A stretch of DNA of 64,000 nucleotides, taken from Thermoplasmata archaeon (GTDB taxonomy: Archaea; Thermoplasmatota; Thermoplasmata; Lutacidiplasmatales; UBA184). A program made the translations under genes and the position numbers. The notes beneath the pieces are model-generated. The model was not told where the DNA came from. It searched no databases and saw only the letters and a program-made list of their open reading frames with translations. The stretch is from NCBI GenBank assembly GCA_049584655.1, contig JBAUYF010000038.1, positions 5,524 through 69,523 of the forward strand. Reading direction: 5' to 3'. Within the stretch, counting starts at the first letter, position 1. Every line of letters begins with the position of its first letter. This document shows, one piece after another, positions 30,977 through 64,000 of the stretch.

Positions 30977-30989
30977 CGCTGGCCCCTCT

Positions 30990-32863: not shown

Positions 32864-33017
32864 CCCAGTCCTCAGCGACCTTCGGGGCCGGCACCACCGA
32901 GAACGGTTGGCACGCCGTCACTTCGAGCTCGCTTCCGCAATCGGGGCAGGAGAAAATCTCTCCTTCGATCATATCCTTCGGCACTACAGGGGCCTCACAT
33001 TCCGGGCAGTTCGTCAT
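32856..33017 (-). CDS. lysW: Amino-group carrier protein LysW/ArgW (53 aa, zinc ribbon with acidic C-terminal EDWGE tail)
   Basis: MTNCPECEAPVVPKDMIEGEIFSCPDCGSELEVTACQPFSVVPAPKVAEDWGE. Two CxxC pairs plus the C-terminal ...DWGE typical of LysW. Its stop overlaps the lysX GTG start. Not in the ORF track (<60 aa). Confidence 0.8.
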   Translation of the reverse strand: MTNCPECEAPVVPKDMIEGEIFSCPDCGSELEVTACQPFSVVPAPKVAEDWGE

Positions 33018-33018
33018 T

Positions 33019-34407: not shown

Positions 34408-34426
34408 AGTGCCGTCGCCGCGGCGG

Positions 34427-43222: not shown

Positions 43223-43351
43223 CGCTGCGCGCTCCCTCTCGGACTGAACGTTGGCCCGAGTCCTCCTGCGATATGAGGTTTGACCGAACTTCGTCCTTGC
43301 AAGCAGCGCAATACGCTGACTCGAGAGGAAAACCTTCCCGGGCACCGCGAG

Positions 43352-47324: not shown

Positions 47325-47339
47325 CGGCGTTGCGCCCCT

Positions 47340-48833
47340 CTACGATGGGTCGCCGTAGACCGTGTAGTGCCAACCTTTGCGGGCGAGCCCCGTTAGATCG
47401 ACGTAGATGTTCTTGACGACGGTGTAGTCCAATAGCGAATCGGTACCGAGGTCTTTGCCGAATCCGGATTGCTTGAATCCCCCGTGCGGCGTCTCGGAGC
47501 CGATCGGCAGGTGGTCGTTGATCCACACGTCACCGAAGCGCAGCGTATTGGCCGCTTTGAGGGCAGTCTGAACGTCCTTGGTCCAGACGCTCCCCGCCAG
47601 TCCATACTCCACCCCGTTCGCGATCTCCATCGCTTCATCGAACTTTTCGAACTCGATCACGTCGAGGACCGGCCCGAAGATCTCCTTCTGAGCGATCGCC
47701 ATATCCGGCGCCACCTCGTCGAAGACGGTCGGGGCGACGAAGGCCCCCTGCTTGCGCTTGGGTCCTCCGTCCGTTCCTCCCGTTTTGAGCTTCGCTCCCT
47801 CGCGTTTACCCGTGGTCACGAAGTCGAGCACTTTCTTCTGGTGGGTCTTGTGCACGAGCGGCCCGAGGTCGGTCTTACGGCTCATCGGATCTCCGATCCG
47901 GATCGTTTGAACGCGCTCCACCAAGTGCTTGACGAACTTGTCCCGGATCGAACGGTGCAGGATCAGTCGGGTGGCCGCCGTGCAATCCTGGCCCCCGTTC
48001 ACGTAACCTCCCACGATAGCCCCCTCGACTGCGGCGGCCAAGTCGGCCTCCGGAAAGACGACAAAGGGAGCCTTGCCGCCGAGCTCCAACTGAACGCGCT
48101 TTACGGTCTGGCTCGCGGCCTCCATGATCTTCTTGCCCGTCGCCGTGTCACCAGTCAACGACACCATGTCGACCTTGGGCGAGCGTGTGATCTCATCGCC
48201 AACTTCGCCGCCGGGTCCGGTCACGATGTTGAGGGCGCCGGGGGGTAGGCCCGCGTCGAGGAATGCCTTGCCCAGCTCGAGGGTCGAAAGCGGGGTCCAA
48301 CTCGCGGGCTTGAGCACGACGGTGTTGCCCGTCACAAGAGCGGGGCCCACCTTCCAGACGGCCATCATGAAGGGATAGTTCCAGGGCGTGATCGATCCCA
48401 CGACCCCGACCGGCTCTCGACGAAAGATCGTGGTGCCATCGCCGAGATATTCCGCGGGACTCTTCGCGTCCATCGTTCGGCCGGCCCCGGCGTAGAAAAT
48501 CAGATTGTCGATGGAACCGGGCAGGTCCACGTCCGCGGCTTGCTTGATCGTCTTGCCCTGATTCCGACTCTCGAGTTCCGCAATCGCAGCGAGGCGCTCT
48601 TGCAGCAATTGTGCGGTCTTGAGATAGACATCGCCGCGCGCCTTGGGCGTCATGCGCGGCCACGGACCGCGGTCGAACGCTTCGCGCGCCGCGTCGATCG
48701 CATTGCGGGCGTCCTCGCGATCGCCCAGAGGCACGGTCCCGATCTTACCGCCGTCGAACGGGCTGATCACGGACGAGGTCGCTTCGGAATTTGCCTCCAC
48801 CCATTCGCCTCGGATCAGCATCCGTGCCGCCAT
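47340..48833 (-). CDS. NAD(P)+-dependent aldehyde dehydrogenase (second, tandem)
   Basis: ELGGKAP and the CTAATR region. The start was moved to the ATG at 48833 (MAARMLIRGEW). The tracked ORF adds a 130-aa low-complexity extension that I reject. Confidence 0.85.
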   Translation of the reverse strand: MAARMLIRGEWVEANSEATSSVISPFDGGKIGTVPLGDREDARNAIDAAREAFDRGPWPRMTPKARGDVYLKTAQLLQERLAAIAELESRNQGKTIKQAADVDLPGSIDNLIFYAGAGRTMDAKSPAEYLGDGTTIFRREPVGVVGSITPWNYPFMMAVWKVGPALVTGNTVVLKPASWTPLSTLELGKAFLDAGLPPGALNIVTGPGGEVGDEITRSPKVDMVSLTGDTATGKKIMEAASQTVKRVQLELGGKAPFVVFPEADLAAAVEGAIVGGYVNGGQDCTAATRLILHRSIRDKFVKHLVERVQTIRIGDPMSRKTDLGPLVHKTHQKKVLDFVTTGKREGAKLKTGGTDGGPKRKQGAFVAPTVFDEVAPDMAIAQKEIFGPVLDVIEFEKFDEAMEIANGVEYGLAGSVWTKDVQTALKAANTLRFGDVWINDHLPIGSETPHGGFKQSGFGKDLGTDSLLDYTVVKNIYVDLTGLARKGWHYTVYGDPS

Positions 48834-48936: not shown

Positions 48937-50109
48937 CTAAGCAACCGCGGCGGAGGTGCTTCCCTCGGCCGGAATCGGAGCCTTTTCGGGCTCGGGACCT
49001 TGCGCGAAGAGGGTCTCGGGCGCGATATCCGCGACTTCTTCTGCGCGGTGGCACGCAACGAGCGTAGAGGGATCGCCTGGACGAGGGCGGAGGAGGGGCT
49101 CCTCTGTCTTGCATCGGTCGATCGCGAACGGGCATCGAGCCGTGAATCGACATCCCGGGGGAGGGCGAACCAGCGTGGGAATCTCTCCGGTGATCCGGTA
49201 GCGGGCGTGACGACGGCGCACATCAGCGACCGGAAGGGCGGCGAGGAGCGCCTTGGTGTAGGGATGGGTGGGATGTTCGAGCAGCTGGTGGACCGGTCCG
49301 ACCTCGACGATCTTTCCTAGATACATCACCGCGACCCGATCGGCCACATAGCGCACGGCGGCGACGTTGTGGGTAATCAGTAGGTAGGCGAACCCGAACT
49401 CGCGCTGTAAGGTTACGAGGCGATTGAGGATCTGCGCTTGGACGGCGACATCCAGGGCGCTCGTCGGCTCGTCCAACACGATGAGCTTAGGTCGAACGGA
49501 GAGGGCGCGGGCCAGCGAAAGGCGTTGGCGACCGCCGCCCGAAAACTCGTGCGGGTACTGATCGAGGCAGTCCGGGGGTAGTCCGACCGTGGGCAAGACC
49601 TCCGATACGCGCGCACGGAGCTGACGCCGGGATAGGCGAGACCTCTTCGGCGGGCGTTCCGCCTTATGCCCGGACGAGCCCAACCGCTGTTTCATGCGCG
49701 CGGTCCAAGAGGGACGCGCCAGCTGCTCCTGCGCCCGGATCGGTTCGCTCACGATCTGCCAAACCTTGAGCCGTGGGTCGAGGGAGCCGACCGGATCCTG
49801 GAAAACGATCTGGACATTTCGTCGCCACTCGCGCAGCTTCCGACCGGAGAGCTCGCTCACGTCCCGCCCATCAAACAGAATCTCGCCGTCCGTGAGGTCG
49901 TGAAGTCGCGCGATCAGCCAGCCGAGGGTGGTTTTGCCCGAGCCGCTCTCCCCGATCAGTCCCACTGTCTCGCCGGCCTCGACCGTCAAAGAAACGTCAT
50001 CCAGTGCATGGATGGCCAGCGACTCCCGCCCCATGGCCGCATCAATAACCGATCGGGAGAGGGGAAAGTGCTTCACCGCATGTTTGACCTCGACCAGCGG
50101 TGGGCTCAT
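48937..50109 (-). CDS. Peptide/nickel-type ABC transporter ATP-binding protein (OppF/DppF-like)
   Basis: Walker A GESGSGKTT, signature FSGGGRQRL (LSGGQ) and Walker B LIVLDEPTSALD. It has the C-terminal oligopeptide-transporter domain. ATGA overlap with the upstream ATPase gene. Confidence 0.85.
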   Translation of the reverse strand: MSPPLVEVKHAVKHFPLSRSVIDAAMGRESLAIHALDDVSLTVEAGETVGLIGESGSGKTTLGWLIARLHDLTDGEILFDGRDVSELSGRKLREWRRNVQIVFQDPVGSLDPRLKVWQIVSEPIRAQEQLARPSWTARMKQRLGSSGHKAERPPKRSRLSRRQLRARVSEVLPTVGLPPDCLDQYPHEFSGGGRQRLSLARALSVRPKLIVLDEPTSALDVAVQAQILNRLVTLQREFGFAYLLITHNVAAVRYVADRVAVMYLGKIVEVGPVHQLLEHPTHPYTKALLAALPVADVRRRHARYRITGEIPTLVRPPPGCRFTARCPFAIDRCKTEEPLLRPRPGDPSTLVACHRAEEVADIAPETLFAQGPEPEKAPIPAEGSTSAAVA

Positions 50110-51320
50110 AGCTCCGGGACCCCCTCCGCAAAGTAGCACGCCGAGGCGTGCGTGCTGCCCGCCGGACGCCGGCGAAGGGGCTCCATCGGCGGACCTGGAT
50201 CCACCTTACACTTTTCCCGAGCCAGGACGCACCGAGGGGCGAAGTTGCACCCCGTCGGAAGTCGCGAGAGATTCGGAACCGTTCCCGCAAGGGAAGGGAG
50301 CGGGCCGTCTGACTTGTACCGGTTCGGGACCGACCGGAGTAGCGCCTTCGTGTAGGGGTGACCCGGGCTCTCGAACACCTCCGCGACAGGGCCGAATTCG
50401 ACGAGATGGCCGGCGTACATGACGCCGACATCGTCCGCGATCTCGGCGATCACGCCCAAGTCGTGGCTAATGAAGAGGATCGAAGTGTGGACCTCGTCGA
50501 TCAGTTCTTTCATCAACGTGAGCACTTGCGCCTGGATGGTCACGTCCAGCGCGCTGGTTGGCTCGTCGGCGACGAGGAGCTCGGGTTTTTCGGAAAGGGC
50601 CATCGCAATCATGATGCGCTGTCGCATCCCGCCCGACAGCTCGTGCGGATACAGCCGAAGGATCGTCTCGGGGTCGTTGATCCGGACCAACCGAAGATAT
50701 TCGAGCACTTCCTCCTTGATGCTCTCGGGCGGATCGGGGATCGTACGTCGTTTGGCGCCCTCGCTCGTGGCCGCTGCCGGTAGGAACGGATGGGCGAGGA
50801 TCTCCCCGGTAGGTGGGAGTTGCCTTCGCGAGTAATCGAATGCCTTGAGCTCAGGCCCGAGGTCAGGCATATTGCCGGCTTCCCGTCGGCGCCGGACTCG
50901 GACCGCCTCGGCCACTTGGTCGAGGATGCGGTAGGCCGGATTCAGCGAGTTCGTGGGCTCCTGGAAGATCATCCCGATTCCGGTACCCCGGACGTAGGGC
51001 ACCTTCCATTTGGGGATCGACAACAGGTCGACACCGCGAAACTCGATCTTGCCCGACAAGGTCTTCGCGGGCGGTTCGGGCAATAGACGCGGGATGGAGT
51101 GGCCGAGCGTGCTCTTTCCGCATCCGGTTTCCCCGACGATCCCAACCACTCGGCCGGGCGGGACTTCGAAGGAAACGTTGTCGAGCGCGCGAAACGTACC
51201 GGAACCGACCGTATACTGAACCGAGAGGCCCTCGACGCGCAGCGCCAGCTCGCTCCCGGGCCGGTCCGAAAGGAAGGAGGCCTGGGGAAGATCCGGCGCG
51301 GAAGCCGCCGGTGATTGCAC
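50106..51320 (-). CDS. Peptide/nickel-type ABC transporter ATP-binding protein (OppD/DppD-like)
   Basis: Walker A GETGCGKST, signature LSGGMRQRI and Walker B LLVADEPTSALD. Confidence 0.85.
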   Translation of the reverse strand: MQSPAASAPDLPQASFLSDRPGSELALRVEGLSVQYTVGSGTFRALDNVSFEVPPGRVVGIVGETGCGKSTLGHSIPRLLPEPPAKTLSGKIEFRGVDLLSIPKWKVPYVRGTGIGMIFQEPTNSLNPAYRILDQVAEAVRVRRRREAGNMPDLGPELKAFDYSRRQLPPTGEILAHPFLPAAATSEGAKRRTIPDPPESIKEEVLEYLRLVRINDPETILRLYPHELSGGMRQRIMIAMALSEKPELLVADEPTSALDVTIQAQVLTLMKELIDEVHTSILFISHDLGVIAEIADDVGVMYAGHLVEFGPVAEVFESPGHPYTKALLRSVPNRYKSDGPLPSLAGTVPNLSRLPTGCNFAPRCVLAREKCKVDPGPPMEPLRRRPAGSTHASACYFAEGVPEL

Positions 51321-51400: not shown

Positions 51401-53146
51401 TCAGGGAAGGTAGTCGCGGGGGAGGGTGCGAAGCTCAGTGAACACTTCGTGGAGGATGCCGATGAACTGCTCGACGTCCTTCTCCGTATGCGCGGTCGAG
51501 AACGTGATCCGCTCGTAGTTATCGGGATGGATGTACACCCCTCGATCGAGCAAGAGCTGGTGATTGCGCAGGAACAGATTCCAGTCGATTTGCAGCGATT
51601 CGCGGTAGTTGGAGATCTTTTTCCGACGCGTGAAGAAGAACTGGAGCATGCCGTTCACGGACTGGACCAGCACCGAGATTTTCGCATCCCGACCGGCGGA
51701 CTCGATCCCCCTCTCCATCTGTGTGGTCAATCGCCCGAACCGCTCGTAGAGCTCGTCTCCTCCACGCGCGAGGATCTTGAGATTCGCGAGGGCCACCGCC
51801 AGCGAGAGATTGTTCGCGAAGTAGGTGCCTCCGAAGGAGATACGGCCTGGAGAGATCGAGTCCATGTACTCGGCTTTACCGGAAACCGCAGAGATCGTGA
51901 CGCCCCCTCCCAAGGCTTTGGCCCAGCACGACAGGTCCGGTTGGACCTTGTAGAGCTGCTGTGCCCCTCCGGGAGCTACGCGGAATCCGGTGAACACTTC
52001 ATCGAAGATCAGCAAGAGTTCGTTCTCGTGCGCGATCTCTCGAAGTCGTTTCAAGTAATCCGGCGCGGGCGCAATGACGCCGGCGTTGGCCATGATCGGC
52101 TCCAGGATGACAGCGGCCAGCCGGTCCCGGTACCGTTTGACCATACGCTCGAACGCTGGGATCGAATTGTACGGAGCGACCATGACGTAGTCCGTCACCC
52201 CGGGGGGAATCCCCGCCGAGTTCGGAAGCGGACGCGGATACTCGTCCAGCCCGGCCACGATCGGCGGCGCCTCCGCGCTAATCAGGGCATAGTCGTGTTG
52301 TCCGTGGTAGTGACCTTCGAACTTGAGAATCGCATCTTTCCCAGTGACGGCCCGCGAGATGCGGATCGCATTCATCGTCGCGTCCGAGCCGTTCGAGCAG
52401 AAGGCGACCCGCTCCGAGTTGGGAACCAGCTTGTGGAACATCTTCGCGACTTCGATCTCGAGTTCGGTCGGCGCCGCAAAATGGAGTCCGAGCTCCGCGG
52501 CATGCTCGACCGCCTTGACCATCTCGGGGTGGGCATGCCCGTTGATAAGGCAGCCGTAAGCGAGATTGAAATCGAGGTACTCGTTGTCGTCGACATCCCA
52601 GATTCGAGCGCCCTTACCCCGCGCGATGAACGGGGGAACTGGGTCGTAGGAAGCCACTCGAATGAGCGAGCTCGAGGAGTTCGGAATGTACTTCTTGCCT
52701 TCCTCGAAGAGCTTCGCACTCTTCTTGAGTTTCGGTACCAGCCGTGCGATCGGGATGGGAAGCGGGATCACCTCCTCTTCGGCCGATTCCTTGGCTTCCT
52801 TCGCCTCTTTTGACTCCTTGGCTTCCTTGGAATCACGCGCCTCCTTAGCCTCCTTAGCCTCCTTGGCCTCGGTAGCGTCCTTCGATTCCTTGGAATCCCG
52901 TGGCTCCTTCTCTTTCTCCTTCTCTCTCTCTTTCTCTTTCTCTGACTCGCGCTTGTCGCGTTCCTCTGACGCGGGCGAGCGCGTGGTCGGGACGATCGCT
53001 ACCGAGGAGCTATCGGTTTTCTTGACCGCGCTGCCCTCGGCACTCAAACGGTCGGGGAAGGGAGAATCCGGGTAGGTTGAGGTCGGAGGTACCTCCAAAC
53101 CGAGCCTCGTCGGCCGATCCGGAGGGGCGGCGTCTCTCTCCGCCAT
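51401..53146 (-). CDS. Class III aminotransferase of the glutamate-1-semialdehyde aminomutase (HemL)-like subfamily with an approximately 120-aa K/E-rich N-terminal extension
   Basis: The core (...KLFEEGKKYIPNSSSSLIRVASYDPVPPFIARGKGARIWDVDDNEYLDF...GHYHGQ...PLP-Lys) matches GSA-AM-like transaminases. There is no ATG between the repeat region and the conserved core. The extension is in frame and free of stops. Confidence 0.7.
   Translation of the reverse strand: MAERDAAPPDRPTRLGLEVPPTSTYPDSPFPDRLSAEGSAVKKTDSSSVAIVPTTRSPASEERDKRESEKEKEREKEKEKEPRDSKESKDATEAKEAKEAKEARDSKEAKESKEAKEAKESAEEEVIPLPIPIARLVPKLKKSAKLFEEGKKYIPNSSSSLIRVASYDPVPPFIARGKGARIWDVDDNEYLDFNLAYGCLINGHAHPEMVKAVEHAAELGLHFAAPTELEIEVAKMFHKLVPNSERVAFCSNGSDATMNAIRISRAVTGKDAILKFEGHYHGQHDYALISAEAPPIVAGLDEYPRPLPNSAGIPPGVTDYVMVAPYNSIPAFERMVKRYRDRLAAVILEPIMANAGVIAPAPDYLKRLREIAHENELLLIFDEVFTGFRVAPGGAQQLYKVQPDLSCWAKALGGGVTISAVSGKAEYMDSISPGRISFGGTYFANNLSLAVALANLKILARGGDELYERFGRLTTQMERGIESAGRDAKISVLVQSVNGMLQFFFTRRKKISNYRESLQIDWNLFLRNHQLLLDRGVYIHPDNYERITFSTAHTEKDVEQFIGILHEVFTELRTLPRDYLP
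52795..52970 (-). repeat. Tandem low-complexity repeat (CTCCTT/AGCCTCCTT units on the plus strand), encoding KEKEREKEKEKE...EAKEAKEAKEARDSKEAKESKEAKEAKE
   Basis: Short purine-rich units are visibly repeated on the coding strand. Both strands stay open across the repeat. Confidence 0.6.
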
Positions 53147-53818: not shown

Positions 53819-55177
53819 TTATTGGGCCGAGGAGGATTTGTTCGGGAAAGCCCGCAAAGCCTCCTCGGCAGCTCGATATCCAGTCTCGATCGCCCCATGC
53901 ACGGTGCTGGCTGCTCCGCTGGAATGCGTGGCTTCTCCGGCAAAGAAAACACGGCCGTCTTCGGGCACGGATAGATCTCGTCGGTCCTGGAGTCCCACCC
54001 CCGGGGGAAGATACGAGTAAGCCCCCACGGCAAATGGGTCGAAGGGCCACCGGTGGACGGCCGTCCCGAGGGCGGGACCCACGCGGCTCCCCGCGGGAAG
54101 GATCGACTCCAATTCCGCAATCGTCGCTTCCAATAGAGGGCTGTCTTCCCACGAGGCCCTGCGACGCGCCTCCCGGCCCACGGTGAAGGCCGTGTAGACC
54201 TCTTGGGCCTCGCCGAGCCCGACGCGGGGGCGCAGGAACGAGGAAGCGCCGTCCCCCCAGATCATCGAGAAGTCGCCCCATCGGTCCCGAAGCGGGTGGT
54301 CAGCAGTCCAGAAATGGACCGCGATAGCGTCGCCCATCGCGATCCGGTCGATCGCGCGCCGCTTCACCTCAGAGAGCGGCGGATCAAACGCGATCATTCC
54401 CGCTCGTAAGACTCCCAACGGCACAGTCACGATCACCGCGGTCGCGCCCAACTCGAAGGACTGCCCATCGGTCGGTCGCTCCCACCGTACGCGGATCGTC
54501 GGCTCCCGAAAATCGATGCGCCGCACGACCGCCCCGGTCTGGATCCATGGGCGAAGCGAATCGGCACGTCGGCGCATCAACTCGGAGTACCCTTCGCGCA
54601 ACTGGAAGTTCGTAAAGCCAAACTTCTCCGAGGCCGCGCGCTCCTCTTCAAGGGGTCCTCGCACTCCGATAGCGTCCGCATCCGCGGCGTACACATGGGC
54701 GAACATCAGGTCGACCAAAGATCGCGCGGCCACTCCCGTGCGGGCCTCAGTGAGCCAACTGGCCAGCGGCAGATCGGTCCCTGCGTACGCGTCCAGTCGG
54801 CGAGGAATGAGGATGCCACCCTCGAGGGTTGCCCGCGTGCCGAACACTGGATGGAAGGGGAACGCCATCCACGGCATTCGGGCAACCCTCCGACCGACGG
54901 CAAACCGGCCTTTCTGCATCAAGGGCAGCGGGCGCACCGAGAGGCCCGTCTCCTGAATCCAGGCGTGGGTCGCCACAGATCGGCCGTGCACCATCTGGGC
55001 TCCCAATTCGAGCGGGCACGACGGGCCACGGGAGTAATCCGTGAAGGCGCGCCCGCCGATCCGGTCGCGACCTTCGAGCACGCGAATACTCCGGCCCGCA
55101 CGCAACAGCCGCTCGGCGGCGGCAATCCCCGCGGCGCCGGCCCCGACGACGATCACGTCGTAGCGAAGTCGGTTCAT
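53819..55177 (-). CDS. Flavin-containing amine oxidase (polyamine/putrescine/monoamine oxidase family)
   Basis: N-terminal dinucleotide fold YDVIVVGAGAAGIAAAERLLRAGRSIRVLEGRDRIGGRA. 452 aa. ATGA overlap with the upstream permease gene. Confidence 0.85.
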   Translation of the reverse strand: MNRLRYDVIVVGAGAAGIAAAERLLRAGRSIRVLEGRDRIGGRAFTDYSRGPSCPLELGAQMVHGRSVATHAWIQETGLSVRPLPLMQKGRFAVGRRVARMPWMAFPFHPVFGTRATLEGGILIPRRLDAYAGTDLPLASWLTEARTGVAARSLVDLMFAHVYAADADAIGVRGPLEEERAASEKFGFTNFQLREGYSELMRRRADSLRPWIQTGAVVRRIDFREPTIRVRWERPTDGQSFELGATAVIVTVPLGVLRAGMIAFDPPLSEVKRRAIDRIAMGDAIAVHFWTADHPLRDRWGDFSMIWGDGASSFLRPRVGLGEAQEVYTAFTVGREARRRASWEDSPLLEATIAELESILPAGSRVGPALGTAVHRWPFDPFAVGAYSYLPPGVGLQDRRDLSVPEDGRVFFAGEATHSSGAASTVHGAIETGYRAAEEALRAFPNKSSSAQ

Positions 55178-56340
55178 TCCGGCGCAACATTTGGGATTGG
55201 CGTCGCAGGGGCTTCTTCCGGCAGCCGAGTATCAGTATCTGCGGCTGACAAAGCCCGTCGCGTCCGCGGGTCGAGCACGTCCCGCAACCCGTCGCCGAGG
55301 AGGCTGAAGGCGAGCACGCTGATGAAAATCGCGAGCCCGGGAGCCGCGATCGTCCAGGGGTACGTCAGGAGAAAACCGGCCGTCTGGTAGTACTGTACCA
55401 TCGACCCCCACTCGGGAACGGACGAGTTCGGGCCCACGCCGACGAACGAGATTGTCGAGAACGTGACGAGGACCGAGCCGATATCCAGGGTAAAGTACAC
55501 GACGATCGGCTCGACGATATTTCGGAGCACGTGCCGGGTCAGGATCCGCGTGTCACTGACGCCGGCGGCACGCGCCGCGACCACGTAGGGTTGGTACTTG
55601 ATCGCCAGGACCTCCCCGCGGACGAGCCGAACGTAGTACGGCCACCACGTCAGGAGGAGCGAAAGATAGCCGGCGCCTAGGCCCCGCCCGAAGATCGCTG
55701 CCAGCGCCAGCGCCAGTACGAGGCTCGGGAACGCGAGAAACACATCCGTAACGCGCAAGATGGTCGCGGAAAGGATGCGGCGCCAAGGGCCGGGTGAATC
55801 CCAGTATCCCGAGACCAAGCCTAATCCGCCACCGATCAACAGCGAGATTCCCGTAATCGAGATCCCGATCCCGAGGTCGAGCGGGGCCGCGTAGAGCGTC
55901 CGCGAGAAGATGTCGCGCCCGAGATTATCAGTCCCGAACCAGTGCTGCCAGGAGGGCGGCTGCGGGGCGGTCGTGGGGCTGATCTGGTTCGGCCCGTAGG
56001 GCAGGACCGAATACGACATCCGGAAGAGCTGCGGGAAGGCGACGGTATGACCGAAAAGGTGGAAGAGGACGATTGGTTGGGCAAAGAACCCCGTAAACGT
56101 CGGGACGACCCAGATGATGAATGCGCCGCCGGTGATGAGGACGACGAGAATGAACCCGACGAGCGACAGCACGTTGGCCCGGAGCACTTGGATGAGGCGG
56201 ACGACGCCTCGATACGCGCGATAGGACGTCGATCGGCGGGACCAACGCCGGGTAGGTGGAACTGGAGACGATTCCGCCGGCACCGGACTCGCAGCCTCAG
56301 ATTCCGAAATGGTGGGCGTGGGCGCGGAGTCGTCGCTCAT
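55174..56340 (-). CDS. Peptide/nickel-type ABC transporter permease (OppC/DppC-like)
   Basis: 388 aa with 6 TM helices and a BPD-transporter EAA-like loop. It directly follows the oppB-like gene with no gap. Confidence 0.85.
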   Translation of the reverse strand: MSDDSAPTPTISESEAASPVPAESSPVPPTRRWSRRSTSYRAYRGVVRLIQVLRANVLSLVGFILVVLITGGAFIIWVVPTFTGFFAQPIVLFHLFGHTVAFPQLFRMSYSVLPYGPNQISPTTAPQPPSWQHWFGTDNLGRDIFSRTLYAAPLDLGIGISITGISLLIGGGLGLVSGYWDSPGPWRRILSATILRVTDVFLAFPSLVLALALAAIFGRGLGAGYLSLLLTWWPYYVRLVRGEVLAIKYQPYVVAARAAGVSDTRILTRHVLRNIVEPIVVYFTLDIGSVLVTFSTISFVGVGPNSSVPEWGSMVQYYQTAGFLLTYPWTIAAPGLAIFISVLAFSLLGDGLRDVLDPRTRRALSAADTDTRLPEEAPATPIPNVAPE

Positions 56341-57363
56341 CTAGCGCCAATCCACCCGGGGATCGATGATCCCGTAGAGTATGTCGGCGATCAGATTCGC
56401 GACGACGACCGAAATGGAAAATACGATGACCACGCCAATGGTGCCGGCGAAATTGTAGTTGATGATCGCGTTGTAGGCATATTGACCGATCCCCGGCCAC
56501 GAGAAGATCTCCTCGACGACCACGGTCCCTGATAGCAGTCCGCTCGCGGTGAAACCGAGCACGGTTGTCGTGGTGATCAGCGAGTTTCGGAGGGCGTGTT
56601 TGAACAGCACGACCTCCTGCGAGAGGCCTTTCATCTTCGCGCTCTTCACGTACTCGAGCGGGAGGACCTCGAGCATCGAGGCGCGCGTCATGCGCGTGAT
56701 GATTCCGAGGTTCAGGAAGGCCAAGGCCGTCGCGGGGAGGATCAGATGTGTGATCGCATCCAAGGTGTACGGCAGGTTTCCCGCAAGGAGCGCGTCGAGG
56801 ACCGACATATGGGTCGGTTGAGGGAACGGAGGCGGATTGGTGGTGAAATCGCCGCTCGTCGGCAGCCCTAAAAACGGACCCACGGCGATCGCGAGTACGA
56901 TCGCCGCCAAATAGGTGGGCGCGGCCCAACCACTGAGGTAGAAGATGCGCACGAGGTGGTCGGGCCAGCGCCCCGCATAGTGCGCGGCCACCACCCCGAG
57001 TGTGATACCGAAAACGATCATCAGGAACAATGAAGCGAGAACGAGCTCGACCGTTTCGGGAAGCGCCTGAGCGATCGCGGGGAGGACGGGCCCCGTCCCG
57101 TTCGGGTCGACCCCCCAGTTTCCGCCGACGAGCTGAACGAGATACTTGTAAAACTGGACGTCGATCGGTTGATTCAAGCCGAAATAATTTCGACACGCGG
57201 CGAGCGCGTCGGGTTTCGCCCGTGGGATCCAGCGAGTGCAGGGGTCCGAAACTCCGATGTGGATGAAGATGAACGTGATCAGAATGGCCCCGATCACGAC
57301 GGGAATGAGCTCCGCGAACCGGATCGCGATAAAGACGGCCAGGTCGCGGAGGCTCCGTCCCAT
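56341..57363 (-). CDS. Peptide/nickel-type ABC transporter permease (OppB/DppB-like)
   Basis: 340 aa. Begins MGRSLRDLAVFIAIRFAELIPVVIGAILITFIFIH..., the typical OppB N-terminus. Confidence 0.85.
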   Translation of the reverse strand: MGRSLRDLAVFIAIRFAELIPVVIGAILITFIFIHIGVSDPCTRWIPRAKPDALAACRNYFGLNQPIDVQFYKYLVQLVGGNWGVDPNGTGPVLPAIAQALPETVELVLASLFLMIVFGITLGVVAAHYAGRWPDHLVRIFYLSGWAAPTYLAAIVLAIAVGPFLGLPTSGDFTTNPPPFPQPTHMSVLDALLAGNLPYTLDAITHLILPATALAFLNLGIITRMTRASMLEVLPLEYVKSAKMKGLSQEVVLFKHALRNSLITTTTVLGFTASGLLSGTVVVEEIFSWPGIGQYAYNAIINYNFAGTIGVVIVFSISVVVANLIADILYGIIDPRVDWR

Positions 57364-57500: not shown

Positions 57501-57956
57501 TCATGGCGCCGGCGGGGGAGGTGGTGGCGGCTCCGACAGATGTTTCGTGAGCGAACTCGCGAACGCTTCCGCATCGCCCTGTACCCGACGCTTGAGGTAG
57601 CCGTCGATCACGACACGCAGGGGGCCGGCGCCCATCATGTCCAGCTTTAGTGTGAGGGCGGTCGTCTCGGTACTTTGGGGCACTAAATCGATCTGTCCCT
57701 CGATGGTCGCATCCGCCCCTCGCGCCGCGAACCGAACCCGACTCTCCGTAGCTTCGAGTAGTTCCCCTTGAAATTCGGTCCGACGGGTGAGCGGCCCAAG
57801 CCTGATCTCGACGAGCCAGGTGGCTGTGGTCGCGGTCTTCGGTACGACCCCTACGACCTGCGGAATGTTCGAGGCCAGGAACCTGGGATCCTTCAGTAGA
57901 TCCACGATCCGGCTCGGCGCCGCCGGCAGGGTGAACGTGATTGTGGAGGTGGGCAT
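57501..57956 (-). CDS. SRPBCC family protein (CoxG / polyketide-cyclase-like ligand-binding fold)
   Basis: 151 aa with a CoxG-like pattern. Poly-Pro C-terminal tail. Confidence 0.55.
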   Translation of the reverse strand: MPTSTITFTLPAAPSRIVDLLKDPRFLASNIPQVVGVVPKTATTATWLVEIRLGPLTRRTEFQGELLEATESRVRFAARGADATIEGQIDLVPQSTETTALTLKLDMMGAGPLRVVIDGYLKRRVQGDAEAFASSLTKHLSEPPPPPPPAP

Positions 57957-57971
57957 CCGATTGGTTCCTCG

Positions 57972-59534
57972 CTAGTTAGGGAGCGTTCGCGAAGGTCCGC
58001 GCCGGTCTTCCAAGATCACGTGAGCGGCGTTGTGACCCGGGGCGCCGATCACTCCTCCTCCGGGATGTGTAGCCGAACCGCACATGTAGAGACCAGGGAC
58101 TGGTGTTCGATAATTGGCCCAACCCGGAATAGGGCGCATGGAAAAGATCTGGTCGGGCGTAATGTCACCCTGATCGATGTTTCCGCCGGGCATGCCAAGA
58201 ATCCGCTCGATATCCGACGGCGTGACGACCTGCCAATGGCGGACGAGGGCTCGGATCCCGGGCGCATACCCTTCGAGAGTCGCAAGCACCGTCTCGGCCA
58301 CGGACTCGCGGGCATCGTCCCAGGTAAGCCCCGCCAACTGCGTTGGAGCAAATTGGACGAAGCAGGTCATCGTGTGCTTGCCGGGTGGGGCGGTGCCCGG
58401 GTCAGCCAGGCTCTGGAAGTACAGGTCGATGTACGGGGCGCGCGAGAAACGACCGTACTTCGCGTCGTCGTACGCGCGCTCGATGTATTCCATTGAGGGA
58501 GCGATATCGATCGCGCCCATCAGATACCCCGAGTTAGGAGCCGCCTCGAATCGAGGTAGCTTATCGAGCGCCGCATTGAACTTGAGACACGCCCCGCGCG
58601 CTTTCACGCGTCGGACTCGAGCCTCCAGGGTTTTATCGAGCGTATCCGGCGGGAGAAGTTTGAGCAGGGTCGTTTGAGTGTCCACGGAGGACACGACGAG
58701 ATCGGCCCGATGTACCGCGCCCTGCTCCGTCTCGACTCCGGTGGCTCGGCCGTTCGCGAGCAGTATTCGGCGCACGGCGGCGCCAGTCACGATCTCCGCC
58801 CCATGCTGTTGCGCCGAAGTGGCGATCGCCTGGGTGATGGCACCCATCCCGCCCGTCATTTGCCCCCAAACGCGTCGGTGACCTTCGATCGTGCCGATAT
58901 TGTGATGGCCGAGGATGTAGGCCGTTCCTGGCGTATACGGTCCGGCAAAAGTTCCGATAACGGCGGACGAGGAGAGAGCGCCCTTGAGTTCCGGAGACTC
59001 GAACCAGTCATCCAGGAAATCCCGCGCGCTTTTCAGGAAAAGATCCCGCAACATCGGTTCGGCTTCCCCGGGTGGGAGTGTTTGGAAGAAATCGGCGATC
59101 GGCATGGGCGGCGCCATCATGGCCGGTTCGATCACATCGAGAACGTGATCCCAGTACTCGACGTACTTGGGATAGACGCGGGCGTCCTTTTCCGAGAATT
59201 TCGCGATCTCCTTCTGCTCCTTCTCGTCATCGATCCAAAAGGCAAGGTACCGGCCGTCGGGCTGCGGGGCAAATCCCTGGGGATCGGACAGAATCGGTTG
59301 ATATCCATACCGCGTGAGCGCGAGATCCTGAATGATCTGAGGTCGGAGTAACCCACTGGCATACGCGAACGTGTTGATCCGGTATCCGGGCCACGGTTCT
59401 TCTGTGACGCACGCCCCTCCCACGATATCCCGGCGCTCGAGCACGAGCACGTGGAGTCCGGCTTTGGCTAGGTAGGCCGCGTTGATCAAACCGTTATGGC
59501 CGGCTCCGATCACGATGGCGTCGTAGTCGGCCAT
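57972..59534 (-). CDS. FAD/NAD(P)-dependent oxidoreductase of the phytoene-desaturase-related (CrtI-like, COG1233) family
   Basis: MADYDAIVIGAGHNGLINAAYLAKAGLHVLVLERRDIVGGACVTEE. 520 aa. Confidence 0.8.
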   Translation of the reverse strand: MADYDAIVIGAGHNGLINAAYLAKAGLHVLVLERRDIVGGACVTEEPWPGYRINTFAYASGLLRPQIIQDLALTRYGYQPILSDPQGFAPQPDGRYLAFWIDDEKEQKEIAKFSEKDARVYPKYVEYWDHVLDVIEPAMMAPPMPIADFFQTLPPGEAEPMLRDLFLKSARDFLDDWFESPELKGALSSSAVIGTFAGPYTPGTAYILGHHNIGTIEGHRRVWGQMTGGMGAITQAIATSAQQHGAEIVTGAAVRRILLANGRATGVETEQGAVHRADLVVSSVDTQTTLLKLLPPDTLDKTLEARVRRVKARGACLKFNAALDKLPRFEAAPNSGYLMGAIDIAPSMEYIERAYDDAKYGRFSRAPYIDLYFQSLADPGTAPPGKHTMTCFVQFAPTQLAGLTWDDARESVAETVLATLEGYAPGIRALVRHWQVVTPSDIERILGMPGGNIDQGDITPDQIFSMRPIPGWANYRTPVPGLYMCGSATHPGGGVIGAPGHNAAHVILEDRRGPSRTLPN

Positions 59535-59686
59535 TCAGGTCGGGGAGACGAGGCCGGTAATAAAGGCGAGAGGTGTGACGGATCTCCGATACGCGCGAGT
59601 GATTTCAATGGGATGTCGCGGCTAGCGACCCGAACCGTTATCCCCGTCCTCCGGTTCCTAAAAATTGTCGCATCCGCGAGGGGTCC

Positions 59687-60856
59687 GTGGCGAAGAGTTC
59701 AGTCGGCTCCGGCGCCCAGAGTTTGCTACGTGCTGGCTCGCCCGAGTTCCACGCAGTAGATCGCCCCCTCGAACGCGCCTCGACCCTCCCCGGTCGGATG
59801 TTCAGCGATCCCGAGGTCTACGCCGCGGAAGTCGAGCGCTTATTCCGTCACGTCTGGCAGTGCGTGGGTCGCGCGGACGAAATTCAACGGCCCGGTGACT
59901 TCCGGACCTACGAGATCGCAGGTTCAGGCGTCATTGTCCTTCGCAATGCCGACGGGGACTTGAAAGCCTACCACAACGTCTGTCGCCATCGGGGAACTTG
60001 TCTCGTGGAGGAGCCGGCCGGGTCCGGACTGAAACGGATCTTGTGTCCCTATCATGCCTGGACCTACGACCTCAACGGCCGACTGCTCGGCGCTCCGCAT
60101 ATGTCGGAAGTGGAGGAGTTCGACCGTCGCGACTACGGGCTCATCCCGGTTTCACTCGACATCTGGCGAGGATTCCTGTTCTTGAACCTGAGCCCGAATC
60201 CAGAACCGCTCAAGCGGAGCTTGGGGGACCTCCCGCAACGGGCCCAGCCGTATCCACTCGAACGGCTCCGCCTCGCCCATCGGGTGACCTATGACGTCCA
60301 TGCCAACTGGAAGCTCATCGTCCAGAACGCCAACGAGTGCTATCATTGCCCCGGCGTGCATCCCCAATTGGTCTGCCTGACACCCTATCGCTCGGGCGAA
60401 GAGGACCTCCGCCAGGGTCCTATCTTCGGAGGCTGGATGGACTTCGTGAAGGGAGTGACCAGCCTCACCGCGAACGGACGGACAACGCGAGCCACGTTCT
60501 CGAATCTCTCCGCCGAGGATCTGGCGCGTGTGTACTACTACGTGCTATGGCCCGCGAATTTCCTCAGCTTCCTCCCGGATTACGTCACCCTCGATTGGTT
60601 CATTCCCAAGGGCCCCGAGCTCACGCAGTTAGTGTTCGACCTCTATGTCGACCGCGACGAATCGGACCCCGCCAACGATGCGATGGCGTTCTGGGATACG
60701 ACGAACCGCCAGGATTGGCATATTTGCGAACTCGCGCACCGAGGATCGAAGACGCTCGGCTACACGCAGGGCCGGTACAGCGGCGAGGAAGAAGTCGTTC
60801 ACCTGGTCGATCGATACTATTTGCGCCGGATGGGGCTGCTGAAACGAGGCCGCTGA
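59687..60856 (+). CDS. Rieske [2Fe-2S] non-heme iron oxygenase, alpha-subunit type (GbcA/Stc2/CntA-like)
   Basis: Rieske CRHRG...CPYHAW and mononuclear Fe site NANECYHCPGVHP. GTG start. Confidence 0.85.
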   Translation: MAKSSVGSGAQSLLRAGSPEFHAVDRPLERASTLPGRMFSDPEVYAAEVERLFRHVWQCVGRADEIQRPGDFRTYEIAGSGVIVLRNADGDLKAYHNVCRHRGTCLVEEPAGSGLKRILCPYHAWTYDLNGRLLGAPHMSEVEEFDRRDYGLIPVSLDIWRGFLFLNLSPNPEPLKRSLGDLPQRAQPYPLERLRLAHRVTYDVHANWKLIVQNANECYHCPGVHPQLVCLTPYRSGEEDLRQGPIFGGWMDFVKGVTSLTANGRTTRATFSNLSAEDLARVYYYVLWPANFLSFLPDYVTLDWFIPKGPELTQLVFDLYVDRDESDPANDAMAFWDTTNRQDWHICELAHRGSKTLGYTQGRYSGEEEVVHLVDRYYLRRMGLLKRGR

Positions 60857-60888
60857 AACCGCGGTCTCGCGTACATGGAACCTGCCCC

Positions 60889-62055
60889 CTACTTGCGGGC
60901 CTTGAGCTGCTCGTCCACGAACATGTCAAAGTCGCACACGAGCGTCTCCTGCTCGCTGTAGCGGCCGCCGTGCCAGACGCGGGAACGTGTCCCTTGCTGG
61001 CCGAGCTCGCAGACGCGCCAGTCCTGGCGGTTGATCTCGTCCCAAAGTCCGGCGGCGTCGTTCGGGTCGAATCCGGGACTTTCGACCGCTTCTCGCGTGA
61101 AGTAGAACTCGTTCTCCACGCGTGAATGGGAGGGGGACTGGGGAAGGATCCGGTGGATCATCACGTAGTCTGGCTGGATGCTGAAGAACGTGTTGGGGAA
61201 GAGCGTGTAGTAGTAGACCCGCTTCTTGTCCTCGGCCGTCATACCCGGGATGAGGGGACGGGTCGTGTAGCCGGACCGCGTCATGGACTGGTAGTCCTTC
61301 GCGAACGTCATGAATCCGCCCGAAAAGCTTCCCATTCGGCCGGCTTCGTGGAAGAAGGCGTCGTTATCCCCGGTCATGTAAGGGGTCAAACGATTGAGCT
61401 CCGGGTGGATTGGCGCGCAATGGTAGCATTCTGAGAAATTCTCGACCAGTAGCTTCCAGTTCGCCTCGATCTCGTAGGCGTGTCGGGCTCCGAGCTTCAG
61501 GTCGGCGATCGGGAACCGTTGGAATCGGTCAAAAAATCGGCCCAGTTGGTCCCGCAAGGTCGGGCCGGTTGATTCGAGGTTGGCGAAGAGAAACCCTCCC
61601 CACCGGTCGATCCGAACCGAGTACAAGCCGAAATCCTTCCGGTCGAACCCCACGAGCTCTCGGGTATGGGTGGCGGCCGTCAGCTTCCCATCGAGCGAGT
61701 AGGTCCATGCGTGATAGGGACAGACGATCGATTTCGCGACGGTCCCCTCGGGTTCGGATAGCAAGCGCGTGCCGCGGTGCCGACAGACGTTGTAGAAGCC
61801 GTGAACCTCCCCGGCTCGGTCCCGGATAAACAGGACGTTCTCGGGACCTAGTTGGCGTGTAAAGAAATCGCCCGGGTTCGGGATCTGATCTTCTCGGCCC
61901 ATCAAAAGCCAGCTGGGATAGAAGAAACGATCCAGTTCGGCCTGAAAGATCGCAGGATCCCAGTAGTTGCGACCGTCCGGCGTATGTTGACTCAGGTGGG
62001 CCGTGGGCTCGCTATGCTCCACGTCCGAAATTGCGGATTTTACCTGAGAACTCAT
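60889..62055 (-). CDS. Rieske [2Fe-2S] non-heme iron oxygenase, paralog of 59687-60856
   Basis: CRHRGTRLL...CPYHAWTY and NFSECYHCAPIHPEL. Clear paralogy with its convergent neighbour. Confidence 0.85.
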   Translation of the reverse strand: MSSQVKSAISDVEHSEPTAHLSQHTPDGRNYWDPAIFQAELDRFFYPSWLLMGREDQIPNPGDFFTRQLGPENVLFIRDRAGEVHGFYNVCRHRGTRLLSEPEGTVAKSIVCPYHAWTYSLDGKLTAATHTRELVGFDRKDFGLYSVRIDRWGGFLFANLESTGPTLRDQLGRFFDRFQRFPIADLKLGARHAYEIEANWKLLVENFSECYHCAPIHPELNRLTPYMTGDNDAFFHEAGRMGSFSGGFMTFAKDYQSMTRSGYTTRPLIPGMTAEDKKRVYYYTLFPNTFFSIQPDYVMIHRILPQSPSHSRVENEFYFTREAVESPGFDPNDAAGLWDEINRQDWRVCELGQQGTRSRVWHGGRYSEQETLVCDFDMFVDEQLKARK

Positions 62056-62227
62056 CGATCATTCTGGGACCTCCCCCGGGATAAAACCTTGCCGTTTTCC
62101 TCGGTACTTGTCCCAAGAATCCGGATCGGAAGTTATAGAGCGATCGCTGAAAGAACCGCCCCCTTTCCGTCACCCCGGAGAGCCGGAATCGTACGGATTA
62201 GTGTCGGCATGCCAGAGTATATCAGGG

Positions 62228-64000
62228 TTGGAGCTTTCCAGAATTTCGGTTCCCGGGGTCGCTTTGAATCCGAAGTGGGTGCGCGTCATCGCCATCGTGG
62301 TCGTCATTGGATTGGTCCTGGCGGGGATTGGAATCTACTATAGCGTCACCCACGCGAACACCGGATGTGGATTGCAGTCCTCGAATCCGCTCATCATCGA
62401 CCAAGCGGAGGAGACGGATTCGGCCGACCCGCAGGTGGCCTCCTCGACCCCCGACTGGGGGCTCGTCCAACAGATCTACCAGACCCTCATCATGTACAAT
62501 CAGTCCAGTTTGACCCAATTCACCCCCGTCCTCGCCCAGAACTGGACTGCGTCGGGTTCGAGTCAGCCGGACCCCCAATCGGTTGCTGCGTACAATTGGA
62601 ACTTCACCCTCCGCCCGGGCGTCCACTTCTCGAACGGGGACCCATTCAATGCCTACGTGATGTGGTATAGTCTGTACCGTCTGATCGCGCTCCAAGGCAT
62701 CGACCAGTACTTGCTCGCCCAGAACTTCTGGTTCCCCTTCACGAACTACTACGCCGATTGGAACTCGTCGGCCGCGAATCTCACGAACTGGCTCAATACG
62801 TGGAACTTCGACAATCCCACCTCAAGCGAGATCGCCATCATGGAGGAGGGAAATCAGTCCTTCCAAGTGCTCGGCCCGTACGAGATCGAGTTCAATCTAG
62901 GGTACGGCTACAACGGGCTCATTCCCTACGCGTACTTCTTAGCCGAAATGTCCACCCCCGGCGCGGCTGCCGTCGACCCGACGTTTATCCAAGCCAACGG
63001 CGGGATCCAGCCCGGGAACCCGAGTACGCCGCTTGCCACGACCGCGGTGGGTACCGGTCCCTACCTCATGACCGCCTACAGTTCGACGGCGGGCTACACG
63101 CTCAAGCCCGATCCGAACTATTGGGCAAAGGGTATTGCGGCCAACGAGACGTGGAATAACAACTTGCAACCCGCGAAGGTCTCCGTCCAGGTGAATTTCC
63201 AGGAGAGTCAGGAAATCACGATCAACGATCTGAAGACCAAAGCGGTCGCCGCCGCCTCATTCGCGTATTTCGGCCCCTCGGCGATCAATCAGGTGAAGGG
63301 AATCTCCTGTATCACCGTCCAAGAACTCAATATTGTCTTCAGCGGGGCGGGAGGCTCTTGGTGGGTCTTCATGGACCAGCAGCAATACCCGTTCAACAAC
63401 CTGAGCGTGCGGGCGGCCATCGTCCATGCCATTAACTATTCACAGGTCGCCACCCAGGCGTTCGGCGGCTATTCCTCGGAATGGGTCGGGCCCGTGGCCC
63501 CGGGTCACCCCTACTACAATCCGGCGAACCTGACCCCGTACCAATACAACCTGGCGTTAGCGAAGCAAGAGATCGCGGACTCCCCGTGCGCGGCCAATGC
63601 CTGCGCCGGCATGACGTTCAATTACGAGTATCTGACCAGCGGTTCCAACGATTGGGAAGACGCCGCGCTCATTATACAAACCGACCTGGCCCAGATCGGG
63701 ATCACGATCAACCCCGTAGGGGTCGACCTCCCGACGTTCTACGCGCTCCAAGTCGTCAACAACGGCGTTTGTACTTCGGACACAAGCCAAGACGGGGGAC
63801 CGTTCTACATTGGGCAGGATTTCTATTCCTCGGACTACATCTCCCCGGACGATTGGACGCAGAACGACTTTGCCAGCACGGGAAGCGCGAACATCTGCCA
63901 ATCGGAGTTCAACACAAATGCTACCCACGACGGCCCATTGAACGTGAGCCTGGACAACCTGGTGTACAATGCGGCGGGCGATACCAATGCGACCAACCTG
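62228..64000 (+). CDS. ABC transporter substrate-binding protein, family 5 (OppA/DppA/NikA-like), membrane-anchored, 3'-partial
   Basis: The frame is open from 62048 to the window end. The N-terminal anchor KWVRVIAIVVVIGLVLAGIGIYY is followed by a family-5 SBP-like sequence with many N-x-S/T sequons. The start is uncertain (TTG 62228 or GTG 62279). Not in the ORF track because there is no stop in the window. Confidence 0.7.
   Translation, partial: MELSRISVPGVALNPKWVRVIAIVVVIGLVLAGIGIYYSVTHANTGCGLQSSNPLIIDQAEETDSADPQVASSTPDWGLVQQIYQTLIMYNQSSLTQFTPVLAQNWTASGSSQPDPQSVAAYNWNFTLRPGVHFSNGDPFNAYVMWYSLYRLIALQGIDQYLLAQNFWFPFTNYYADWNSSAANLTNWLNTWNFDNPTSSEIAIMEEGNQSFQVLGPYEIEFNLGYGYNGLIPYAYFLAEMSTPGAAAVDPTFIQANGGIQPGNPSTPLATTAVGTGPYLMTAYSSTAGYTLKPDPNYWAKGIAANETWNNNLQPAKVSVQVNFQESQEITINDLKTKAVAAASFAYFGPSAINQVKGISCITVQELNIVFSGAGGSWWVFMDQQQYPFNNLSVRAAIVHAINYSQVATQAFGGYSSEWVGPVAPGHPYYNPANLTPYQYNLALAKQEIADSPCAANACAGMTFNYEYLTSGSNDWEDAALIIQTDLAQIGITINPVGVDLPTFYALQVVNNGVCTSDTSQDGGPFYIGQDFYSSDYISPDDWTQNDFASTGSANICQSEFNTNATHDGPLNVSLDNLVYNAAGDTNATNL

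Follow-up and report, generated by a model that had tools for sequence, protein, structure and literature searches.

A convergent pair of intact Rieske oxygenase genes

We analysed a 64,000-nucleotide stretch from the genome of a Thermoplasmata archaeon (GenBank assembly GCA_049584655.1, contig JBAUYF010000038.1, positions 5,524 to 69,523 of the forward strand), hereafter referred to as the window. Close to its end lie two genes for Rieske/mononuclear-iron oxygenases, here named RO-A and RO-B. A preliminary description of this DNA had presented them as a convergent pair of paralogues, and the list of open reading frames (ORFs) and the sequence itself agree with this picture, 32 bp separating the two stop codons. 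The pair and the intergenic regions that bound it are as follows (coordinates of the window).

59535-59686, no strand: divergent intergenic region between a gene for a 520-residue flavoprotein and RO-A (from the sequence)
59687-60856, + strand: RO-A, Rieske/mononuclear-iron monooxygenase alpha subunit, 389 residues, GTG start, Pfam Rieske and Ring_hydroxyl_A
60857-60888, no strand: 32-bp spacer between the converging stop codons (from the sequence)
60889-62055, - strand: RO-B, paralogous Rieske monooxygenase alpha subunit, 388 residues, ATG start, Pfam Rieske and Ring_hydroxyl_A
62056-62227, no strand: divergent intergenic region between RO-B and a binding-protein gene (from the sequence and gene calls)

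RO-A and RO-B are paralogues that share 43% identity over 356 aligned residues (E = 9e-107). Both proteins match the Pfam families Rieske (PF00355, E 1e-17 to 1e-20) and Ring_hydroxyl_A (PF00848, E 1e-37 to 1e-51) far above the cutoffs. The two metal-binding motifs recognized earlier, CxH...CxxH and N..ECYHC..HP, are found in both, and every ligand could be located. In RO-A, the Rieske cluster is ligated by C99/H101/C120/H123 and the iron site reads N214-A-N-E217-C218-Y-H220-C221-x3-H225-P, with D343 as the Asp ligand; in RO-B, the corresponding residues are C91/H93/C112/H115, N206-F-S-E209-C210-Y-H212-C213-x3-H217-P and D345. The preliminary description had allowed for the possibility that these ligands are not conserved. 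All seven, i.e., those of the Rieske centre and of the 2-His-1-Asp site, are in place in each protein; moreover, the Rieske motif is kept in 240 of 240 homologues (120 per paralogue), and the pattern NxQD[WF] around the Asp ligand is matched in 226 of them. RO-A and RO-B are real, intact genes.

The GC content of the window is even (0.58-0.66), and the oxygenase region is not an outlier. An A/T-rich TAAAAATT box lies ~20-27 nt 5' of the GTG start of RO-A; this TAAAAATT box is possibly an archaeal TATA box, in which case the RO-A transcript might be leaderless. Rfam and tRNA scans of the window gave no match.

RO-A and RO-B are members of the alpha-only group V class

The solved structures nearest in sequence are those of the carnitine monooxygenase CntA (E 1e-44 to 1e-46), the stachydrine demethylase Stc2 and the Stc2 homologue 3n0q. 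Among these solved relatives, only CntA aligned across both domains, and the biphenyl, naphthalene and phenylpropionate dioxygenases were matched only in their N-terminal (Rieske) half and with weaker E-values. An AlphaFold2 model of RO-B (pLDDT 89.4, pTM 0.87) gave a consistent result: its top 18 Foldseek matches were all Stc2, 3n0q or CntA, with TM-scores of 0.71-0.82, ahead of any alpha3beta3 enzyme.

Two features of the iron site point in the same direction. The motif N-x-x-E-C-Y-H-C-x3-H-P contains a bridging glutamate (E217 in RO-A, E209 in RO-B); its counterpart in CntA, E205, bridges the electron path from the Rieske centre to the iron of the neighbouring subunit (PMC7948474), as electrons cross between subunits in alpha3 enzymes (PMC7948474). 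Beside the mononuclear iron, both proteins further carry a Cys-x-x-Cys pair (C218/C221 in RO-A, C210/C213 in RO-B), which is peculiar to group V and seen in some of its members (PMC10952381). Classical alpha3beta3 enzymes such as HcaE, NDO and BphA share the Rieske domain and the general fold of the catalytic domain, but they align in the N-terminal part only, use an Asp rather than a Glu bridge and contain a beta subunit; neither the window nor any of the related loci contained a beta-subunit gene (PF00866 or HcaF-like).

Judging from sequence, motif and predicted fold, RO-A and RO-B thus belong to the alpha-only group V class of quaternary-ammonium Rieske monooxygenases, which includes CntA, Stc2 and the glycine betaine monooxygenase GbcA. 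Bacteria employ enzymes of this kind to remove methyl or alkyl groups from nitrogen compounds resembling betaine. The likeness to this class proposed in the preliminary description holds, and the clustering with classical dioxygenases and a beta subunit that it had considered as the counter-case was not observed. A literature search returned no report of archaeal group V enzymes or of a Rieske enzyme in polyamine catabolism. To our knowledge, group V enzymes have been characterized only in bacteria and plants, where they act in the fate of betaines, carnitine and choline.

The paralogues differ from characterized enzymes and from each other

For both proteins, the best NCBIfam model is that of GbcA (NF058607). 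Their scores of 198 bits (RO-A) and 218 bits (RO-B) nevertheless stay far below the cutoff of 670 bits, and the match covers only residues ~30-230; with the same model, E. coli YeaW scores 154 bits and a Cereibacter GbcA-like protein 485 bits. Sequence identity amounts to 30-34% to YeaW, the Cereibacter reference and a Priestia homologue (up to 35% for the latter), and to 22-27% to HcaE. On these comparisons, RO-A and RO-B are not orthologous to GbcA, CntA, Stc2 or another characterized member. The nearest non-archaeal relatives are uncharacterized proteins from soil Chloroflexota, Gemmatimonadota, Acidobacteriota and Eremiobacterota and from some cyanobacteria, with 40-47% identity.

In a neighbour-joining tree with 50 bootstraps and four references (E. 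coli YeaW, the Cereibacter GbcA-like protein, the Priestia homologue and HcaE), RO-A and RO-B each fell into an exclusively Thermoplasmata clade (50/50 and 43/50 bootstraps, respectively). The two clades appeared as sisters in only 2 of 50 bootstraps, which argues that the pair is not a recent duplication. The phylogenetic check that had been proposed for the pair therefore yielded solid clades, while their position relative to the four references was not settled by it (see below).

For the proposed comparison of substrate pockets, we mapped the CntA pocket residues through HMMER alignments and used position 203 and the helix of the Asp ligand. Position 203 of CntA splits group V into Va, with Tyr or Phe (CntA, choline monooxygenase, OxyBAC), and Vb, with Asn (GbcA, BmoA, Stc2); in CntA, the Va aromatic residue makes a cation-pi contact to the ammonium group (PMC7948474). 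RO-B carries Phe207 at this position, and Phe or Tyr is found in 120 of 120 homologues and also in the bacterial subfamily, in line with Va. RO-A instead has Ala215, embedded in an Ala-Asn sequence (N-A-N-E-C-Y-H-C) that is kept in 119 of 120 homologues. The Vb Asn is absent from both paralogues and present in the Cereibacter reference. Read against this alignment, Ala215 is a third state of position 203, neither Va nor Vb. The aromatic residue of Va is present in RO-B; RO-A lacks it, and the other mappable CntA residues are not kept.

Compared system by system, CntA of Acinetobacter baumannii and YeaW of E. coli (Va) resemble the pair in the alignment over both domains (CntA), the alpha-only fold, the bridging Glu, the Cys-x-x-Cys pair and the 2-His-1-Asp site, and CntA resembles RO-B in the aromatic residue at position 203. 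They differ in identity (~25-31%), in the Ala of RO-A at position 203, in the other mapped pocket residues, in gene context and in the adjacent CntB/YeaX, which is missing here. Of the Vb enzymes, Stc2 is the top structural match (TM ~0.8) and GbcA provides the best family model; the N-demethylation chemistry of Stc2 and GbcA also fits the GcvT, MttB and MTHFR genes that neighbour the relatives (see below). In contrast, identity to Stc2 and GbcA/BmoA is only 27-31%, Phe (RO-B) or Ala (RO-A) stands where they have Asn, and no GbcB-type gene adjoins the pair. Plant choline monooxygenase, likened here by description and not by sequence, shares membership in group Va, the conserved aromatic residue and the use of ferredoxin without a dedicated reductase (PMC6157903, PMC7948474). 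Choline monooxygenase proteins were reported absent from archaea in 2018 (PMC6157903), and the relatives from soil bacteria and cyanobacteria may overlap with the set described as bacterial choline monooxygenase-like.

A further parallel is offered by the caffeine N-demethylases NdmA and NdmB, two paralogous Rieske enzymes that are encoded together, act on different N-methyl groups of one substrate and share the dedicated reductase NdmD. They are like RO-A and RO-B in being paired paralogues and unlike them in having NdmD.

The pair is widespread and recurs in one genomic setting

For each paralogue, homologues with >=54% identity make up no fewer than 120 separate clusters (90% identity), and all named sources of these clusters are Thermoplasmata or Methanobacteriota. 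The class is common in this lineage, and the earlier description of it as an archaeal rarity is not valid here. Of 14 species-level Thermoplasmata loci, 7 have RO-A and RO-B side by side, in convergent (4), tandem (2) or divergent (1) orientation, and two further metagenome-assembled genomes show the identical order of flavoprotein, RO-A, RO-B and binding protein. In many Thermoplasmata genomes the adjacent pair recurs, always inside the same amine-catabolic island. That the two genes stayed neighbours despite changes of orientation speaks for a common function. Four Thermoplasmata loci with complete flanks (L009, L016, L022 and L023) nevertheless have RO-B without RO-A, and in L096 and L097 RO-A-type genes stand by themselves, which indicates that the pair is not an obligate complex.

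No dedicated reductase is linked to the oxygenases

Pfam-annotated gene calls and our own scans revealed no FAD_binding_6, NAD_binding_1 or Fer2 protein and no Pyr_redox_2 ferredoxin reductase across the 64-kb window, except for one fragment, and neither a glutathione-reductase-type nor a ferredoxin gene was found in it. An iron-sulfur motif scan of every window ORF of at least 40 residues returned the two Rieske motifs only. The exception is the following.

9100/9121-9390, + strand: orphan NAD_binding_1 fragment of 89-96 residues, C-terminal part of an FNR-type domain (Pfam)

This fragment directly follows an AlkZ-like gene, 50 kb from the oxygenases, and two assemblies annotate it as a gene. 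We rejected it as a usable reductase, as it is a stump without any homologue but itself among 5.8 billion proteins. The preliminary description had noted the missing neighbour and the decayed FNR-like piece, and was right on both counts.

In the two-component systems CntAB, GbcAB and YeaWX, the adjacent FNR-type reductase comprises a flavin, an NAD(P)H and a plant-type [2Fe-2S] module. We searched 84 related loci (14 archaeal, 70 bacterial) with YeaX of E. coli and the GbcB-like protein of Cereibacter, and none had a YeaX/GbcB-type gene within 10 kb of the oxygenase. Taken over ~90 related loci, no FNR-type reductase or ferredoxin gene was seen nearby. Both control loci were positive, with yeaX directly downstream of yeaW in E. 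coli and a GbcB-like gene directly downstream in Cereibacter. The missing linked reductase is thus a trait of the family and not special to this window. Furthermore, the earlier view that this class needs an FNR-type reductase is too strict: plant choline monooxygenase receives its electrons directly from reduced ferredoxin (PMC6157903), so that an FNR-type partner is not obligatory and an unlinked ferredoxin would be the simplest donor.

Several other candidate donors near the relatives were discarded. A Rieske-ferredoxin-like ORF is limited to three Chloroflexota loci and an HcaD-like ORF to one locus, and neither is conserved; a thioredoxin-reductase-like gene with a 4Fe-4S ORF 7 kb away occurs at one locus only; and CoxS/CoxM-like genes near two relatives are part of molybdenum hydroxylase clusters. 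The CrtO-like flavoprotein next to RO-A was rejected as a reductase because its sole Pfam match is a FAD-type dinucleotide fold at the N-terminus and because 35 of 57 bacterial loci have no homologue within 5 kb; in this role it is a low-probability idea. A homologue on a Priestia megaterium plasmid (NZ_CP071467.1, L014 2278-10694) lies with a BCCT transporter, solA and an 800-residue FAD oxidoreductase. This locus contains no GbcB-type gene, and a thioredoxin-reductase-like FAD oxidoreductase is found 2.6 kb off, making it another reductase-less arrangement.

The oxygenases lie within an amine import and breakdown island

From ~42.3 kb to beyond the end of the window, gene calls with Pfam annotation and our scans outline an island around the two oxygenases. 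It encodes an Opp/Dpp-type ABC importer (SBP_bac_5, two permeases and two ATPases), two CrtO-like flavoproteins of 520 residues, one of them beyond the window end, two carboxy(nor)spermidine-dehydrogenase-like proteins, three to four class-III aminotransferases and two aldehyde dehydrogenases; FAD amine-oxidase or CrtO-like proteins number three in total. RO-B and the gene for the binding protein point away from each other. The individual features are listed from the oxygenases' side outwards.

62228-64000, + strand: family-5 solute-binding protein SBP_bac_5 (PF00496), 636-648 residues, running ~170 bp past the window end, with weak NikA/HbpA-type matches
57972-59534, - strand: CrtO/CrtI-like FAD oxidoreductase, 520 residues, divergent from RO-A; CrtO model 328 bits (cutoff 1000)
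57501-57956, - strand: small SRPBCC (Polyketide_cyc2/CoxG-like) protein (Pfam)
55174-57363, - strand: two ABC permease genes (BPD_transp_1)
53819-55177, - strand: flavin amine oxidase, 452 residues, polyamine-oxidase/LSD-like; Amino_oxidase 193 bits
53430-53777, - strand: small cupin protein (gene calls, scans)
51401-53146, - strand: class-III aminotransferase with a 140-residue N-terminal extension (scans)
48937-51320, - strand: two Opp/Dpp-type ABC ATPase genes (ABC_tran and oligo_HPY)
45840-48833, - strand: two aldehyde dehydrogenase genes (gene calls)
44296-45816, + strand: class-III aminotransferase, like diaminobutyrate/gamma-aminobutyrate (GABA) transaminases (gene calls, models)
42302-44233, - strand: Amidohydro_2 protein and a 306-residue protein that matches MTHFR weakly and below threshold; outer boundary of the island (gene calls, scans)

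The best solved relatives of the flavin amine oxidase are LSD2/LSD1, followed by bacterial amine oxidases and polyamine oxidases. An arginase-family gene is present in the island of one relative. The most constant neighbour of the oxygenases is a homologue of the CrtO-like flavoprotein, found within 5 kb at 9 of 10 archaeal and 22 of 57 bacterial loci; de novo clustering of the neighbour genes brought out no further conserved partner.

Two observations on the island stand apart. The aminotransferase at 51401-53146 passes the subfamily cutoff for glutamate-1-semialdehyde aminomutase (409 vs 398 bits) within a catabolic island. In addition, the small CoxG/SRPBCC protein follows the 520-residue flavoprotein in the Thermoplasmata islands L002, L015, L018 and L098, and a CoxG/SRPBCC-like gene lies near an RO-A-type locus (L097 1-61).

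Relatives connect the family to quaternary amines

Two other Thermoplasmata genomes have an RO-A-type gene immediately behind one for a non-pyrrolysine MttB, within an Opp-type transporter cluster, and one of these two loci also encodes a second MttB, a Pterin_bind protein and MTHFR. An MttB gene is likewise close to the oxygenase in three Chloroflexia loci (L040, L065 and L030), and GcvT occurs at a median distance of 90 bp from the oxygenase in 22 loci. The known substrates of non-pyrrolysine MttB proteins are all quaternary amines (PMC12155760). The MttB, GcvT and MTHFR neighbours thereby tie the family indirectly to quaternary-amine demethylation; this is the strongest of the indirect support, and it comes from the relatives and not from the island in the window. 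The Phe/Tyr of the cation-pi contact, retained by RO-B and its whole subfamily, adds to the link. The earlier suggestion that the pair acts on an imported amine gains support from this neighbourhood and from the synteny conserved among the Thermoplasmata.

Two arrangements among the bacterial relatives deserve mention. At L040 (7036-11233), the order is non-pyrrolysine MttB, GcvT and Rieske oxygenase, beside Pot-like ABC permeases, which places an O2-dependent and a corrinoid-type demethylase side by side. In Acidobacteria, an amino-acid permease, a group V oxygenase, GcvT and two CrtO-like flavoprotein genes form a module (L087 9026-16196; also L067, L072, L074 and L093) that, by its gene content, looks like a complete, uncharacterized N-demethylation unit.

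A model for the function of RO-A and RO-B

With moderate confidence, we consider RO-A and RO-B to be functional alpha-only group V monooxygenases of an uncharacterized subfamily that work in a Thermoplasmata island for amine import and breakdown. Single electrons would enter the Rieske [2Fe-2S] centre of each enzyme and, by way of the bridging Glu (E217 in RO-A, E209 in RO-B), cross the subunit interface. They would thus reach the 2-His-1-Asp iron, at which O2 would be activated and a C-H bond beside a positively charged, most likely quaternary, nitrogen hydroxylated. The resulting carbinolamine would collapse either to formaldehyde (N-demethylation) or to an aldehyde and a smaller amine (C-N cleavage), a step that should be impossible for flavin amine oxidases when the nitrogen has no lone pair. 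The degradation could then be finished by the neighbouring flavoproteins, carboxyspermidine-dehydrogenase-like enzymes, class-III aminotransferases and aldehyde dehydrogenases. RO-A and RO-B might take different groups or successive steps, and their donor would be unlinked, most simply a housekeeping ferredoxin.

The analysis shows that the genes are intact, to which class they belong, that they and their synteny are conserved and that no reductase is linked to them, whereas the quaternary substrate, the split of tasks between the paralogues and ferredoxin as donor are inferred. Several points weigh against this model. The window's own island contains no GcvT or MttB gene, and its polyamine-oxidase-like and carboxyspermidine-dehydrogenase-like enzymes and transaminases would fit primary or secondary polyamines equally. 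No ferredoxin or reductase candidate was located, the related genomes being covered as ~20-kb stretches. Beyond position 203 and the Asp-ligand helix, the CntA pocket is unreliable to map, since its loops align differently in RO-A and RO-B; of the remaining residues, the mappable ones are not conserved, which makes carnitine an unlikely substrate. The Va/Vb rule rests on a handful of characterized enzymes, and RO-A fits neither state. Lastly, only 3 of 50 bootstraps placed the tree references outside the remaining sequences, so that the placement of the clades relative to YeaW and the GbcA-like reference is not settled and we do not claim a monophyletic new subfamily.

The same island enzymes lead to an alternative that we regard as rather unlikely, in which the substrates are non-quaternary polyamines or secondary and tertiary amines derived from amino acids. 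Here, the carbon beside a protonated nitrogen would be hydroxylated, as an O2-dependent alternative to flavin oxidases. The polyamine-oxidase/LSD-, carboxy(nor)spermidine dehydrogenase- and diaminobutyrate/GABA transaminase-like enzymes and the aldehyde dehydrogenases would suit such a route, as would the arginase-family gene of one relative and the lack of a cation-pi residue in RO-A. The restriction of CntA to quaternary ammonium compounds (PMC7948474) speaks against it, however, as do the flavin oxidases already present, which could handle secondary and tertiary amines, and the MttB, GcvT and MTHFR genes recurring beside relatives, which point to N-methyl or quaternary chemistry.

A bolder extension, which we see as a long shot, takes RO-A as a third pocket class of group V that acts on another nitrogen state than RO-B. 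The pair would work without an NAD(P)H reductase and draw its electrons either from an archaeal ferredoxin or from the oxidation of the next intermediate by the CrtO-like flavoproteins, amounting to a self-feeding dealkylation of a polyamine-like quaternary compound.

Homologues are named "glycine betaine catabolism A" by pipelines of the Joint Genome Institute (JGI), and a route from choline to glycine can be drawn up for the island. RO-B would act like choline monooxygenase (choline to betaine aldehyde), an aldehyde dehydrogenase would yield glycine betaine, a GbcA-like RO-A would produce dimethylglycine and flavoproteins would strip the remaining methyl groups. The two aldehyde dehydrogenases, the several flavoproteins, the GbcA model as best NCBIfam match and the Va aromatic residue that RO-B, and not RO-A, shares with choline monooxygenase (PMC7948474) are in keeping with such a pathway. 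We nonetheless judge it very unlikely: the GbcA model reaches less than a third of the required score, matches the N-terminal half only and does no better for these proteins than for YeaW; RO-A has Ala in place of the Asn of GbcA and Stc2; the importer is of the Opp/Dpp and not of the betaine/choline type; and the carboxyspermidine-dehydrogenase-like proteins and the three to four class-III aminotransferases would be left without a role.

A single mixed hetero-oligomer of RO-A and RO-B, like the one suggested for NdmA and NdmB, is highly improbable. Adjacency retained through three gene orientations and electron transfer between the subunits of alpha3 enzymes (PMC7948474) would suit an obligate complex, but each partner is encoded without the other, RO-B in four loci and RO-A-type genes in two, and the clades group together in 2 of 50 bootstraps only. 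Barely credible is the last alternative, suggested by the NCBI name "aromatic ring-hydroxylating dioxygenase subunit alpha" and the Pfam Ring_hydroxyl_A match, of classical alpha subunits with genes for the beta subunit, ferredoxin and reductase at another place, given the match restricted to the Rieske half with weaker E-values, the fold ranking below Stc2 and CntA, the Glu in the E-C-Y-H-C motif, the missing beta-subunit genes in the window and related loci and a context free of aromatic-pathway genes.

As this locus shows, widespread soil Thermoplasmata possess two deeply diverged members of group V as a conserved pair within an amine-import and breakdown island, with gene partners unlike those of any characterized member. 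The whole subfamily, archaeal and bacterial, lacks the linked dedicated reductase that textbook members need. The two oxygenases, the binding protein and the CrtO-like flavoproteins would be targets for a new quaternary-amine or polyamine route in soil. They would also allow one to test how reductase-less archaeal Rieske enzymes are powered, and to probe the Va/Vb rule, which depends on one residue, with a third state found in nature.

Other features of the window

Outside the island, positions 27998-35659 hold a LysW/LysX-type cluster for amino-acid biosynthesis on a carrier protein (LysW zinc ribbon, LysX ATP-grasp protein, semialdehyde dehydrogenase, amino-acid kinase, aminotransferase and M20 peptidase), preceded by genes for argininosuccinate lyase and argininosuccinate synthase. 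A phage-integrase-family gene (36-812) is located at the start of the window, near cupin, DUF4440 and AHSA1 genes.

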